Below are positions 4,922-25,112 of a DNA stretch of 61,240 nucleotides, piece after piece (within the stretch, counting starts at the first letter, position 1; each line of letters begins with the position of its first letter). The notes below the pieces were generated by a model, which saw only the letters and a list, made by a program, of their open reading frames with translations, was not told the DNA's origin and searched no databases. Position numbers and translations under genes: made by a program. Source of the stretch: Candidatus Bathyarchaeia archaeon (GTDB taxonomy: Archaea > Thermoproteota > Bathyarchaeia > 40CM-2-53-6); the NCBI GenBank assembly GCA_049521055.1, contig JBEKPE010000002.1, forward strand, positions 1-61,240, given 5' to 3'.

Positions 4922-5051
4922 CTCGTTTCAACACCTCCCTTGCAATAATCATTTGACAGACACTGTAGTACCGAAGCTGAATTTAGCGACTGGGCGCGCC
5001 CGAACTTCGTCAAGGCCCGCATTAGTCAAGGGTTTGCAGGAAGGTTGAGTA

Positions 5052-5552
5052 CTAGTGAATCATTCCGAATTCCTTGAGCACGTACCCATGTCCGCGGGTG
5101 AAATCGTCAGGAGTCATCTCGTTGGCTTTGAGGAATTTTAGTTCAGAAAACCACTCAGGCCGTTTCACCTCTCCCTTCACCTTTCCCTCATAAACGAAGC
5201 ATATGTCCCAGTGTGCAGATTCGGGGTCATTCGGATCTTGCGATAGGTGGGATTGAACTTGACTGAACGTCAACTTCACGTCGTTGACCCCTACCAGTTC
5301 GGTAAGTATTCGATTTGCGGCGTCGTCTGGTTTCTCGCCATACTTCAGATGTGATGCAGGAAGAAGCCATTTCCCAGAAGAAGCATATTGAGGAGCAAAG
5401 TTTTCACCAACGAAGAACCTCTCAACCCATATTTCCGGTTTCGTCATTTTTCCCACAAGAATGCCGCCCTTCCCGGTGAGTACTAAGAAGGCGGAGATGC
5501 ATGTCCCGCCTTTCGGCACGTGACCCTCCATAAAGACAGCTTTCTTAATCAT
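5052..5552 (-). CDS. NUDIX-fold protein with a degenerate Nudix box
   Basis: KWLLPASHLKYGEKPDDAANRILTELVGV matches the Nudix box spacing, and SELKF follows. Start taken at ATG 5552 (MIKKAVF). Confidence 0.75.
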   Translation of the reverse strand: MIKKAVFMEGHVPKGGTCISAFLVLTGKGGILVGKMTKPEIWVERFFVGENFAPQYASSGKWLLPASHLKYGEKPDDAANRILTELVGVNDVKLTFSQVQSHLSQDPNDPESAHWDICFVYEGKVKGEVKRPEWFSELKFLKANEMTPDDFTRGHGYVLKEFGMIH

Positions 5553-19398: not shown

Positions 19399-20091
19399 AT
19401 GATAATCGCCATCATTTCCGACATACACGCCAACCTAACTGCTCTTGAAGCAGTAATCGATAAACTCCCAAAACACGATGAGCTATTCTGCCTCGGCGAT
19501 ATTGTAGGATACGGGCCTCAACCAAACGAAGTAATCGCAAGACTTGTAGAACTTCAACCTTCAGTCACCCTACAAGGCAACCACGACGCCGCAGTCGTAA
19601 GTGGTGACGTGCAAGGATTCTCTGCTAACGCCGCGACAGCTGTTGAATGGACGAGACGGAAGTTGGACCATGCAAGTCGTGGCTATCTTGCCGGACTGAA
19701 ACCATACGCAAGAATACAGCGTGGGGAGCACACACTCGCACTCTATCACGGCAGTCCACATGATCCTTTGAACGAATACGTCTTCCCTGGCGTGACTGCT
19801 AGCGTCGGGCGGAGCATGATGAAGGCTGCCTCAGCAAGTATTGTCCTTCTTGGACATACTCACATGCCCATGCTTTACAGATTCGAAAATGGTGTTCTGG
19901 CAAACCCCGGGAGCGTGGGCCAACCTAGGGATGGCGACCATCGAGCAAGTTTCGCTATTCTTACCGTATCTCAAGGAGATGTTAGGTTCGAGGTTCAGAG
20001 AGTTGAGTACAACGTCGGTCTCGTGGCAGATCGGATCATTAGCAGTGGCCTTCCAAGTTTTCTAGCTGAACGATTGTACATGGGCGCGTAG
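19399..20091 (+). CDS. Metallophosphoesterase (YfcE/MJ0912-like, PPP fold)
   Basis: SDIHAN, GDIVGYGP, GNHD, HGSP, GHTH, NPGSVGQPRDGD. Confidence 0.9.
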   Translation: MIIAIISDIHANLTALEAVIDKLPKHDELFCLGDIVGYGPQPNEVIARLVELQPSVTLQGNHDAAVVSGDVQGFSANAATAVEWTRRKLDHASRGYLAGLKPYARIQRGEHTLALYHGSPHDPLNEYVFPGVTASVGRSMMKAASASIVLLGHTHMPMLYRFENGVLANPGSVGQPRDGDHRASFAILTVSQGDVRFEVQRVEYNVGLVADRIISSGLPSFLAERLYMGA

Positions 20092-20154
20092 ATGACTTCT
20101 CGACGTTAGATTATGCTGATTTGTTGAGCTATTCTTTTAAGAGACTGAAGCATC

Positions 20155-20268
20155 ATGCGCAAAATCAACAACGGGCGAGGCATGAGGCAATTGAGAGGGT
20201 GTAACTTCGGTGGTCGCATTTACGGTGACCGCTACTGGCTTGCCCACGCTAGACTCTTCCCGAACTAG
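20155..20268 (+). other. Candidate upstream ORF / leader peptide of the lysC-asd-aro operon
   Basis: Reads MRKINNGRGMRQLRGCNFGGRIYGDRYWLAHARLFPN*, with a second ATG at 20182. It overlaps a hairpin at 20210-20232 and is followed by TTTTT. Confidence 0.35.
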
Positions 20269-21565
20269 TTTTTCGCGCAGCGCGACGCTGGAAGAAGCCG
20301 AGACCAAACCGAGTGCAGTTGTCGCCTTGAAGCACGGTTCGAAGACACTAGTGGTCAAGTTTGGTGGGTCCAGCCTTCGAGACAAAGACCGATTGAACAA
20401 CGCGGCGAACCTGATCGCGAAGGAAAGCGAGAAGGGCACACGGCTAGTCGTGGTGGTATCGGCTATGGGAAAGATGACTGATCAACTCTTGAACTTGATC
20501 CGTCAAGATTCAGCAAACAGCCTCGACAAAACCGACTCAGATGACATCCTAGCGATGGGCGAGAGAACAAGTGTCAGGATCTTCGCAACCGCCCTCAAGG
20601 CTGCGGGAGTCGAAGCAAAATACTTCGACCCAGGGGAACCCAATTGGCCCATCATAACTGATGATAACTTCTCTGATGCAAATCCAATCGTTGAACTATG
20701 TTTGCAGAAGGTTCGCGAACACGTGGTTCCTCTCCTCGATTGGGGGACTGTTCCAGTGATCGCGGGGTTCGTGGGACGTTCTACAGCAGGCAAGGTTAGT
20801 ACAATTGGCCGAGGGGGAAGCGACACAACCGCTTTCATAATCGCGAAAGGAATTGGGGCGGACGAGGTCGTTCTCGTCACCGACGCAGACGGAATTCTTT
20901 CCGCAGACCCAAAACTCATCCCGGACGCCCGTAAGTTGGAAAGGATAGATGTCAGAACTCTCATTGGGCTGGCGGATTCTGGGACGAAGTTCATCCATAG
21001 AAAAGCTCTCAGGTATAAGGACCCAGATATTCCGGTTAGAGTCATAAACCATGAGAAGAATGATCTCGAGGCCGACGGGACGATTATCACCGGCGGTATC
21101 TCGAGCGAGATTGAAGTTACCTTTGAAGAAGATCGACAGATTATGGCTGTAACGATCGCCGGCAAGGGAATTTCCGAGAACCCACACATACTTACCGACG
21201 TAATCAAGGAAATACGCAAACACTCAACGCTAGACGGCCTCTCTGAAAACTTCGATTCATTAATCTTCTACGTTCCACAAACAGGATCGAACCCGGTTCT
21301 AGCCGCGGTACACAACGTCGTTATGAAATATGGCGAGGCGATGGCGTTGGCTGTCCAACCCAACTTGGCATTTCTCAAGGTGAAGGGCGTAGGCTTGGAG
21401 GATACTCCTGGGATAATTGGTAGAATTTCATCCCATCTGCTTGAGAATCGAATCAACATCTATGGGATGCTTACACTTGCTTCTAGCATCCTCGTATTTG
21501 TTGCGTGGGAGGACAAGGAGCTGGCCCTGCGCTTGATGAAACAGATTGCCAAGAGGGAATTGTGA
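20210..21565 (+). CDS. lysC: Aspartate kinase (ACT domains)
   Basis: VVKFGGSS, VVVSAMG, GERTS, GRGGSDTTA, TDADGILSADP. Start is GTG 20210 (SD GAGGGTG) or TTG 20327. Confidence 0.93.
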   Translation: MVAFTVTATGLPTLDSSRTSFSRSATLEEAETKPSAVVALKHGSKTLVVKFGGSSLRDKDRLNNAANLIAKESEKGTRLVVVVSAMGKMTDQLLNLIRQDSANSLDKTDSDDILAMGERTSVRIFATALKAAGVEAKYFDPGEPNWPIITDDNFSDANPIVELCLQKVREHVVPLLDWGTVPVIAGFVGRSTAGKVSTIGRGGSDTTAFIIAKGIGADEVVLVTDADGILSADPKLIPDARKLERIDVRTLIGLADSGTKFIHRKALRYKDPDIPVRVINHEKNDLEADGTIITGGISSEIEVTFEEDRQIMAVTIAGKGISENPHILTDVIKEIRKHSTLDGLSENFDSLIFYVPQTGSNPVLAAVHNVVMKYGEAMALAVQPNLAFLKVKGVGLEDTPGIIGRISSHLLENRINIYGMLTLASSILVFVAWEDKELALRLMKQIAKREL

Positions 21566-23398: not shown

Positions 23399-24453
23399 TG
23401 AAAGAACTCTGGCTTCGACTAGACCCCAACATAACGCAGGCTAAGAAGAAGGAACTGCTCAAAATAGCCGAAGGACATTTCAGCGTAGCAGTGCTTTCTC
23501 CCGAAGATCTATCACTCGCAAGCGGCCTGAAACTGAAGACTGCCTCAACAGAGGAACGATCCGACATCAGACTTCTATCAACGCGGGCTGGAATCGGCAA
23601 CACAATTCCTAAGAACGCTGCTGTGGAGGTCGTCGTGAAAGATAGTTCAGACGAAGAGAAAGTTCTGCAGCTAGCAGAAGCCGGGATACGTTATGTGCTG
23701 GTGAAATGCCCTAATTGGAAGATTATCCCGCTTGAGAACCTCATCGCGAGGACTAGGAACAAAGTTAGCCTGCTCGCTGATGTGGCCAGCAAGAGCGAAG
23801 CTCAAGTTGCATTGCAGACATTAGAACTAGGAGTGGATGGCGTCGTCCTTACCGTCGCTTCGCCAAAGGATCTCGAAGGGGTAGACGAACTTGCCACACA
23901 TGACAACAATGTTTCCCTCATTGGGGGAAAGGTCGTTGATGTCCAGCAAATTGGTCCGGGGGCTAGAGTCTGTATCGATACATGCGAGCTACTGGAACCG
24001 GGGGAGGGAATGCTCGTTGGTTCACAATCGTCTGGGTTGTTTTTGGTGGAGGCCGAGGTTCATAGAAATCCGCACGTTGAGCCTAGGCCCTTTCGCGTAA
24101 ATGCAGGGCCTGTCTCCTCTTACGTTCTCGCGCCTGGGTTGAAGACTCGTTACCTTGCTGAACTGAAGGCGGGAGAAGAAATACTGATCGTAAGTCGCGC
24201 AGGAGCGACGAGAACAGGGCATGTTGGACGCGTGAAAATAGAACGCAGGCCAATGGTTCTCGTCGTAACCGAAGCCAACAGTCACACTTTCTCCATAATT
24301 CTTCAAAACGCAGAGACAGTTCGCCTAGTGTCGAACGCAGCTTCGACCCCAGTATCTGAACTAAAGGCGGGCGATGAGGTTCTGCTCAGGGTAGAGGAAG
24401 GCGGCCGGCATTTCGGCACCCTGGTAGCGGACGAAATGGTGATCGAGCGCTGA
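23398..24453 (+). CDS. aroB': 3-dehydroquinate synthase II
   Basis: WKIIPLENLIA, ARVCIDTC, GEGMLVGS, RPFRVNAG, KIERRPM, ILQNAET. Confidence 0.95.
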   Translation: MKELWLRLDPNITQAKKKELLKIAEGHFSVAVLSPEDLSLASGLKLKTASTEERSDIRLLSTRAGIGNTIPKNAAVEVVVKDSSDEEKVLQLAEAGIRYVLVKCPNWKIIPLENLIARTRNKVSLLADVASKSEAQVALQTLELGVDGVVLTVASPKDLEGVDELATHDNNVSLIGGKVVDVQQIGPGARVCIDTCELLEPGEGMLVGSQSSGLFLVEAEVHRNPHVEPRPFRVNAGPVSSYVLAPGLKTRYLAELKAGEEILIVSRAGATRTGHVGRVKIERRPMVLVVTEANSHTFSIILQNAETVRLVSNAASTPVSELKAGDEVLLRVEEGGRHFGTLVADEMVIER

Positions 24454-25112
24454 AGTGCAAAGTATGTCTGTCGGTCGCGGTAGATGACGAAGCGAATGTT
24501 ACTAAACTAGTCGAACAGATCTCTGCCAAGAAACCCGACCTCGTTGAATTTCGACTTGACAAACTACATGAACCTAGACTCCTCGAAGAGATTGTGAACG
24601 CGAAATCCTTCCCTGTCATCGCTACCGACAAATCGGATCGTGGCTCGAAAGCTACGGTGGAACTTCTATCACATGCTGCGGCTGCGGGTTTCGACTTGGT
24701 GGACATCGAACTTTCAGTCGCGTCATCCAACCCCATAGTGAAAAAACTGAAATCCCAAGGGAGTGACGTGATCGTATCGTTTCATGACTATTCACGCACG
24801 CCTTCTTCTGAAGAGTTAAGGAAGGTTTTGCAAGCCGAGAAGAATGCTGGTGGTGATGTTTGTAAGGTTGTAACCACGGCGGTCAAACCGAGCGATAACT
24901 TGGCCATTCTTGGTTTCGTGGCAGATGAATCAGCCAATACGAGGTTGGTTTCCTTCGCGATGGGAACCTATGGCATCCCATCGAGAATTCTATCGCCTTG
25001 GTTTGGTGCGGAATTCACGTTCGCAGCGATTTCGGAAGAATCGAAAACCGCCGATGGCCAATTGAGCGTAGATGCACTTCGGATGGTTTGGCAAACCCTT
25101 GGAATCCAATAA
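24450..25112 (+). CDS. aroD: 3-dehydroquinate dehydratase type I
   Basis: DLVEFRLD lies upstream of the ORF-track start. Also DLVDIEL, IVSFHDY, DVCKVV, FAMG, ADGQL. The frame is open back to CTG 24450, which overlaps the aroB' TGA, giving 220 aa. Confidence 0.9.
   Translation: MKCKVCLSVAVDDEANVTKLVEQISAKKPDLVEFRLDKLHEPRLLEEIVNAKSFPVIATDKSDRGSKATVELLSHAAAAGFDLVDIELSVASSNPIVKKLKSQGSDVIVSFHDYSRTPSSEELRKVLQAEKNAGGDVCKVVTTAVKPSDNLAILGFVADESANTRLVSFAMGTYGIPSRILSPWFGAEFTFAAISEESKTADGQLSVDALRMVWQTLGIQ

Follow-up and report, generated by a model that had tools for sequence, protein, structure and literature searches.

The stretch of DNA analysed here (the window; 61,240 nucleotides (nt) of contig JBEKPE010000002.1 from a Candidatus Bathyarchaeia archaeon, assembly GCA_049521055.1) carries on its + strand a nine-gene operon with the order lysC-asd-aroA'-aroB'-aroD-aroE-aroK-aroA-aroC, which extends from about 20210 to about 29216. 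The first gene, lysC, encodes aspartate kinase and is followed by asd (aspartate-semialdehyde dehydrogenase), by aroA' and aroB', the archaeal shikimate-pathway entry enzymes (a DeoC-family aldolase and 3-dehydroquinate (DHQ) synthase II), and by genes for the remaining products, viz., aroD, aroE, a GHMP-type shikimate kinase, 5-enolpyruvylshikimate-3-phosphate (EPSP) synthase and chorismate synthase. Adjacent genes of the operon are tightly packed, with overlaps of 1 to 8 nt and interlocked stop and start codons. Our subject is the leader of this operon, in which a short upstream open reading frame (uORF) containing Phe, Tyr and Trp codons overlaps the 5' end of lysC in a different frame, and which we propose may sense the supply of aromatic amino acids through +1 frameshifting. 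An earlier note on this DNA had described a uORF, a hairpin over the lysC start and a T-run as a possible translational attenuator, and all of the sequence features that it listed were found again, each at its position. The features on which the argument turns are as follows.

20125 to 20142, + strand: conserved B recognition element (BRE)/TATA region, TGAGCTATTCTTTTAAGA (genus consensus TGAGGAAYTCTTTTAAG)
20182 to 20268, + strand: leader uORF of 28 codons, MRQLRGCNFGGRIYGDRYWLAHARLFPN, from ATG 20182 to the stop TAG 20266-68, with an alternative start at TTG 20191 (25 codons)
20194 to 20208, + strand: unit 1 of the array, AGAGGGTGTAACTTC, ending in the Phe codon UUC (20206-08), which is preceded by AAC, a codon that is non-slippery here
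20209 to 20223, + strand: unit 2, GGTGGTCGCATTTAC, with the Shine-Dalgarno (SD)-like GGUGGUC (20209-15), the slippery AUU (20218-20) and the Tyr codon UAC (20221-23)
20224 to 20238, + strand: unit 3, GGTGACCGCTACTGG, with the SD-like GGUGACC, the Tyr codon UAC (20233-35) and the Trp codon UGG (20236-38)
20195 to 20341, + strand: the lysC (+1) frame 5' of the kinase domain, which opens after TGA 20192-94, crosses the array and continues as a poorly conserved Ser/Thr/Pro-rich linker
20342 to 21565, + strand: aspartate kinase proper (lysC), with Pfam matches to the AA_kinase and ACT domains

The leader was compared over the lysC loci of 18 same-genus genomes, a set that is protein-anchored and hence unbiased, and over 69 further unique sequences obtained by a pattern scan of metagenomes (combined set n=87). 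The uORF singled out by the earlier note is retained in these relatives: its start and stop, together with the codons for Phe, Tyr and Trp, are conserved above chance in both the 18 genomes and the 87 unique sequences. A start codon is present at -27 from unit 2 in 54/87 sequences and at -18 in 53/87, as against at most 16/87 at any other in-frame position, and ATG, TTG and GTG alternate at these sites. The stop falls in a single aligned column, at +57, in 17 of the 18 genus genomes (TAA 7, TAG 5, TGA 5), and the frame is closed at or before +57 in all 87 sequences and never later. As in leader-peptide attenuators, a short open reading frame thus precedes a biosynthetic operon and is enriched in codons for its end products: the Phe codon TTC of unit 1 is found in 16/18 genus genomes and 79/87 unique sequences, NTT-TAY at unit 2, with its Tyr codon, in 18/18 genus genomes and the Trp codon TGG of unit 3 in 15/18 and 82/87, respectively. 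Tyr is encoded by TAC in 10 genus genomes and by TAT in the other 8, a change that is synonymous in the uORF frame and exchanges Thr for Met in the lysC frame; likewise, the Asp codon alternates between GAT and GAC, which would be Ile or Thr in the lysC frame. Where the two frames conflict within the array, it is therefore the uORF frame that is conserved, and we infer that the uORF is translated. The longer form of 37 codons (20155-20268) that the earlier note had taken as the uORF, with ATG 20182 internal to it, is indeed present, but only the 28-codon form is conserved: several relatives carry in-frame stops between -54 and the conserved start, and ATG 20155 lies about 10 nt upstream of the transcription start predicted from the TATA element. 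The promoter to which that note had pointed proved to be conserved in all 18 genus sequences, TCTTTTAAG being invariant in their alignment and the TATA element TTTTAAG conserved beyond chance. Its spacing (about 25 nt) predicts a transcription start at about 20162-20166; a scan for sigma-70 promoters gave no matches.

The three 15-nt units, AGTGGTTACATTTTC, GGTGGTCACATTTAY and GGTGATCACTACTGG, are read in the uORF frame as SGYIF-GGHIY-GDHYW. The array is invariant even at third codon positions, its Gly codons being GGT in 61/63 cases against a genome usage of 19%, and is under conservation at the nucleotide level. Each unit consists of GGUGRYC, 2 nt, NUU and a U-initial aromatic codon. Over all of its 7 nt, the form GGUGAUC is complementary to the 16S rRNA 3' end, GGAUCACCUCCU, as read in two same-genus genomes and one genome of family f2 (G004, G005 and G025), and the SD-like GGUGGUC or GGUGAUC lies 2 nt before NUU, which gives a gap of 5 nt compared with an initiation optimum of 7 nt. 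This is the arrangement of the programmed +1 frameshift site of prfB, where an SD-like stimulator precedes a slippery codon of the type NUU-U in the ribosomal P site. Since all aromatic codons begin with U, NUU followed by such a codon would let the P-site tRNA re-pair on UUU in the +1 frame, and on the basis of this sequence unit 2 is proposed to be the main +1 shift site. The number of units is four instead of three in L009 (G014) and L147, which indicates that the array grows and shrinks by steps of five codons with both frames preserved.

The lysC frame is the +1 frame of the uORF in genera g1 and g2 and in six genera of family f2, without exception. The spacing between unit 2 and the kinase motif KFGGSS varies (12 different lengths), yet lysC stays in frame and open in 71 of 72 g1 sequences. 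Over this region, stops occur in the lysC frame in 0/84 sequences, in the uORF frame in 84/84 and in the third frame in 64/84, and, judged from this pattern, the lysC frame downstream of the array is certainly translated. The leader thus has the plan of prfB, with a short 0-frame open reading frame and the main product in the +1 frame. In 7 of the 72 sequences ATG, GTG and TTG are all absent from the stretch that separates the uORF stop from the kinase domain, and in many g2 and f2 genomes a GTG inside ATGGGTGA is the only in-frame lysC start. The sole exception to the open frame concerns a pair of sequences, L017 (G006) and L018 (G010), which differ by a one-base indel in the linker; it breaks the lysC frame in one metagenome-assembled genome (MAG), leaves no start codon ahead of the kinase domain and probably stems from faulty assembly.

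The N-terminal extension encoded in the lysC frame appears to be of little consequence in itself. The GTG at 20210 opens a frame of 451 codons, of which the Pfam kinase domain occupies only the part from residue 45. An AlphaFold (AF2) model built with 62 homologues gives residues 1-42 a predicted local distance difference test (pLDDT) score of 25-31 and no secondary structure, and a structured N-terminal domain was rejected on this basis; the extension is predicted to be a disordered spacer. The earlier note had also considered that this extension might sense Thr. This is not borne out, as its Thr and Val codons arise when His/Tyr (NAC-N) and Gly (GGU-G) codons are read one base further on, and the Tyr position, which stays Tyr in the uORF frame whether TAC or TAT, does not stay Thr in the lysC frame. 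A Thr/Ile-sensing leader of the thrL kind (VVTFTVITTG) was accordingly rejected as a by-product of the frame offset.

A second locus, trpE, supports a +1 frameshift by independent, parallel sequence evidence. We examined trpE in 58 genomes from 17 genera and 8 families of the order. In the genome of the window, trpE lies on the minus strand of contig C31 (L249, about 3019-2960), where a 17-codon uORF, MGNSFWTWRPNSYTNRS, is followed by trpE in the +1 frame; it begins ATG GGG AAT AGC TTT TGG and reads MGNSFWTW up to its stop (relatives, L250-L308). The cassette start-RGG-NAT-MGY-NTT-TGG heads trpE in 58/58 genomes, with ATG (52), GTG (4) or TTG (2) as its start codon, and trpE is always in the +1 frame. 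In 26 of the 58, the trpE frame is devoid of ATG, GTG and TTG before the conserved LLES region, and in many it opens at the TGA of ATGA. The cassette, AGGGAUCGCGUUUGG, shares nucleotides with the lysC unit GGUGAUCACAUUUAY, which we take to explain why its AU and G are conserved, namely as SD-like positions. When the whole genome was scanned for this design, trpE was the only convincing case. Reinitiation at a CTG after the trpE uORF stop was considered and rejected, given that this Leu codon alternates between CTG and CTA and the position of the stop is not conserved between families.

Aromatic uORFs precede lysC in nearly every family of the order and fall into two groups. In the run-type group (f5, f6, f8, f9 and f10) the uORF ends in plain runs, such as NPYYYYYYYCFF, FFDFFYYYFYFE and FYGCFYYYFFKN, each directly before the stop, or YYYYYYYCFF; it stands in any frame relative to lysC, which has its own start. 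In the unit-type group, which comprises g1 and g2 of f1 and most f2 genera (g4, g16, g17, g21, g22 and g23), leaders such as M-G-D-H-L-F-G-D-G-V-Y or M-G-G-H-L-Y-W are combined with a lysC frame that is always +1 and open from the array onwards. In four lineages (G034, G313, G035 and G026) the +1 frame is unfused and forms an open reading frame of 50-67 codons that ends a few nt from the lysC start. A similar claim for the run-type (type A) leaders, that their +1 frame reaches lysC, was dropped, for it holds in only 6/16. As a side observation, in three f8 run-type leaders (L023, L024 and L222, of the YYYYYYYCFF kind) the stop TAA adjoins an 11-bp hairpin (GCTTCGAAACC/GGTTTCGAAGC), beyond which come TTTTTGTTTT and the SD of lysC; the +1 leader frame continues to the lysC start in two of these leaders. 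No aromatic leader was seen upstream of the tyrA/chorismate mutase (CM)-aminotransferase genes.

Among the possibilities raised by the earlier note, the sensing of aromatic amino acids through a translated leader is the best-supported reading, and it agrees with the order-wide occurrence of Phe/Tyr/Trp-rich uORFs before lysC. Frameshifting, to which the +1 relation, the prfB-like cassettes and the trpE parallel point, had not been considered in that note. We lean modestly towards the hypothesis that the leader is a ribosome-read aromatic amino acid sensor in which a hungry-codon +1 frameshift switches lysC on. Transcription would begin about 25 nt after the conserved TATA element, and ribosomes initiating at the uORF start (ATG 20182 or TTG 20191) would read three five-codon units that end in UUC (Phe), UAC (Tyr) and UAC-UGG (Tyr-Trp). 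While charged tRNAs are plentiful, they would terminate at TAG 20266-68 without entering the lysC frame, and expression of the nine-gene operon would be low. A shortage of an aromatic aminoacyl-tRNA would leave the ribosomal A site empty, upon which the peptidyl-tRNA on AUU (20218-20) could re-pair on UUU one base downstream, a slip that would be helped by GGUGGUC, located 2 nt upstream, through base pairing to the 3' tail of the 16S rRNA. The shifted ribosome would then proceed in the +1 frame through the disordered linker into aspartate kinase, and a hairpin between units 2 and 3 would bar free 30S subunits from the GTG codons within the array. The predicted trans-frame junction is ...FGGRI-TVTATGLPTLDSSR, with the junction peptide ITVTATGLPTLDSSR after ...FGGR if the shift takes place at AUU-UAC; for trpE, the predicted trans-frame product is MGNSF-GHGVQTVTQTDHR. 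A hungry-codon shift would give the response the right sign, and would explain the constant +1 relation, the opening of the lysC frame shortly upstream of the first sensor codon and the early stop in the 0 frame. Extended to the order, the proposal is that its Bathyarchaeia control the lysC-asd-aro and trpE operons by 'frameshift attenuators', in which an SD-like GGNGAUC is followed after 2 nt by NUU and a U-initial codon for the operon's own product, a shortage of the cognate charged tRNA leads to a +1 shift, and the three lysC cassettes act as an OR gate for Phe, Tyr and Trp. For this wider proposal we consider the balance to be even.

Several observations weigh against frameshifting. The Tyr site is the only slippery one in the window, AAC-UUC and UAC-UGG being non-slippery, and, as the SD-like element pairs with a deeper part of the 16S tail than its prfB counterpart does, the effect of its spacing is uncertain. 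An in-frame GTG (G-GTG-R) is built into every unit, and in 8/18 genus genomes an ATG at +13 has a usable SD gap of 9 nt. The probable use of a non-canonical start in this lineage (the CTG of aroD, described below) weakens the argument from the missing trpE start codons. Moreover, the +1 frame of the trpE cassette looks more conservative (G-I-A/V-F-G) than its 0 frame; we ascribe this to the SD-like nucleotides, though it could mean that +1 reading begins earlier. Finally, the sequences all derive from MAGs or metagenomes.

The foremost alternative makes use of these in-frame starts, and of a hairpin which had been described in the earlier note as burying the lysC start.

20209-17/20225-33, + strand: hairpin between units 2 and 3, 9 bp, -13.4 kcal/mol, whose loop AUUUACG holds the slip site

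This hairpin joins the SD-like parts of units 2 and 3 and buries both GTG 20210 and GTG 20225. It is real in that it is predicted in 15/18 relatives with -8 to -14 kcal/mol, alongside a weaker alternative pairing of units 1 and 2. LysC could, on this explanation, which corresponds to the translational attenuator of the earlier note, be initiated independently at GTG 20210, GTG 20225 or the ATG at +13, behind the hairpin, with translation of the uORF opening or occluding the site and stalling at aromatic codons changing its availability; the N-termini would then be MVAFTVTATG... or MTATGLPT..., with (M)VAFTVTATGLPTLDSSR or (M)TATGLPTLDSSR as the predicted N-terminal peptides. The constant presence of the in-frame GTGs fits this explanation. 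Nevertheless, we find it unlikely, in part on geometric grounds. The stall codons (20206-08, 20221-23 and 20233-38) lie within about 25 nt of the starts at 20210 and 20225, inside the footprint of a ribosome, and ermC- or cat-type unmasking therefore fits badly, as the stalled ribosome would itself hide the candidate starts; starvation would thus repress the operon, which is the wrong sign. The GTGs in the array never alternate with ATG or TTG. They sit 12 nt after the preceding GGTG, while the GGTG-to-ATG gap in the genome peaks at 7 nt, and in f2 the SD AGGTGA lies 6-8 nt before the uORF ATG, the gap preferred in the genome (peak 7 nt), but 10-12 nt before the +1-frame GTG. As for the hairpin, covariation lends it no support: 94% of cells pair, with 0 compensatory changes, and column shuffles reach the same values. 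Its central pairs are missing in the L008-L010 clade, and the palindrome is not retained in f2. At trpE, moreover, the cassette lacks such a start in 26 of the 58 genomes.

A nascent peptide might instead be the sensor, FGGHIYGDHYW arresting ribosomes at high levels of free aromatic amino acids, in the manner of TnaC, and so blocking the overlapping lysC start. This would have the right sign, its logic agrees with the overlapping starts, and G, H and D residues are conserved besides the aromatic ones. We hold it to be very improbable all the same, seeing that Gly is fixed as GGT, a constraint on nucleotides and not on the peptide, that the peptide is merely 16-19 residues long at the last aromatic codon, that the sister families use plain Phe/Tyr runs as is typical of sensors of tRNA charging, and that the missing trpE start codon is left unexplained. 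Least probable of the explanations weighed here is an untranslated uORF whose array serves as a protein- or RNA-binding element (an operator or TRAP-like repeat) or as a conserved N-terminal peptide of the kinase: the nucleotide-level invariance and the 15-nt repeats with palindromic cores (GTGATCAC) and variable number (4 in L009) would suit it, but the start and stop are conserved with alternating codons and the synonymous variation is specific to the uORF frame, the two-unit motif occurs only once in the genome (single units elsewhere sit in ordinary genes), so that a regulon or operator was rejected, an Rfam search of 19900-20600 at E <= 10 found no match to a riboswitch, T-box or other family, AF2 shows no structure in the extension and the aromatic uORFs across the order are of unrelated sequence. 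Beyond the genus, matches to the nucleotide motif occur at chance level only.

A role in transcription termination is likewise unsupported for two further elements.

20269 to 20284, + strand: T5 run (20269-73) and CGCG-CAG-CGCG (20274-84), within the translated linker, as seen in the 18-sequence genus alignment

The earlier note had placed this T-run and hairpin in its attenuator. Both are present in the DNA, but in the alignment they are shared by the closest relatives only, a scan for intrinsic terminators returned 0 sites, and the pair is probably non-functional. The leader as a whole is not unusually stable (z = +0.5).

Frameshifting as proposed here would join features of two classical systems. 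The leader resembles trpL, pheL, hisL and thrL in that a short open reading frame with end-product codons, presumably read by the pioneer ribosome, precedes a biosynthetic operon. Unlike in these attenuators, there is neither a terminator/antiterminator pair nor a conserved T-run, the leader runs into the first structural gene in a different frame instead of ending before it, and the output is probably translational, through the choice of frame and not through termination of transcription. For want of a terminator/antiterminator pair, the leader does not belong to the trpL/pheL attenuator family; the sensing is attenuator-like and the output prfB-like. In E. coli prfB (release factor 2, RF2; AGGGGG-UAU-CUU-UGA), as here, the short 0-frame reading frame ends soon after the site and the main product is in +1, an NUU codon in the P site is followed by U, and an upstream SD-like stimulator pairs with the 16S 3' end; a slow A-site codon triggers the shift, which is sensor and effector at once, as we propose for the leader. 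The leader differs in that the A-site codon would be a sense codon (UAC, UUC or UGG) tied to the supply of aminoacyl-tRNA and not of a release factor, in that its SD-like element pairs with GAUCACC and not with CCUCC, in having up to three serial sites, and in being archaeal and known here from sequence.

The nearest case of a leader reading frame is that of ermC, in which ketolides induce frameshifting (Atkins et al. 2016, PMC5009743): a shift within the leader allows ribosomes to continue and turns on the downstream gene, much as might occur in the four lineages with an unfused +1 frame. In that system a drug serves as inducer and the shifted ribosome does no more than unfold the mRNA, whereas here a shortage of amino acids would induce the shift and the shifted ribosome would make the enzyme. 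Frameshifting at hungry codons, studied by Gallant and Lindsley and covered by two reviews (PMC5009743 and PMC8211752), is known solely as an error or as a laboratory effect, from which its use in a leader would differ, and according to the review by Atkins et al. (PMC5009743) there are no known examples of its use for starvation-specific products. A 2021 review of archaeal recoding lists one cellular case of programmed ribosomal frameshifting (PRF), a -1 shift in fucA1; it has +1 shifting solely as a suggestion for a haloarchaeal virus and lists no attenuation, and our literature search returned no description of these leaders or of leader-peptide control in Archaea. If correct, the proposal would provide the first instance in nature of hungry-codon frameshifting serving as a metabolic sensor and, for Archaea, the first cellular case of programmed +1 frameshifting along with the first amino acid control shown to act through a leader reading frame; little has been reported on how archaea sense amino acid supply at the level of RNA. 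The combination of attenuation logic (end-product codons) with the effector of prfB (a +1 shift) would amount to a new regulatory principle, and such a sensor would need no terminator, alternative RNA fold or protein factor. It predicts a junction peptide whose abundance depends on the supply of Phe, Tyr and Trp. The matter also bears on annotation, as gene callers give these aspartate kinases arbitrary N-termini and find no trpE start codon in about half of the genomes.

Three further observations concern the operon and its surroundings. In aroD (window 24450-24594), ATG, GTG and TTG are absent before about residue 48 of the conserved N-terminus, and the aroB' stop overlaps a CTG (CGCTGAAG, CTGA), the equivalent position in f2 being GTGA. 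The sequence suggests that aroD has a probable CTG start reached by termination-reinitiation, and it was rejected as another +1 case in view of this CTGA overlap and its homology to the f2 GTGA. A 100-codon open reading frame on the minus strand (20137-20439) lies antisense to the leader and the 5' end of lysC and bears no gene-like sign. In another genome of the same genus (L051; G001:C11, about 5000-5400), there remain the promoter, the uORF, in which Gln stands in place of Trp, and some 60 codons in the +1 frame; lysC through most of aroB' has been lost, and the leader now stands about 50 nt upstream of aroD.

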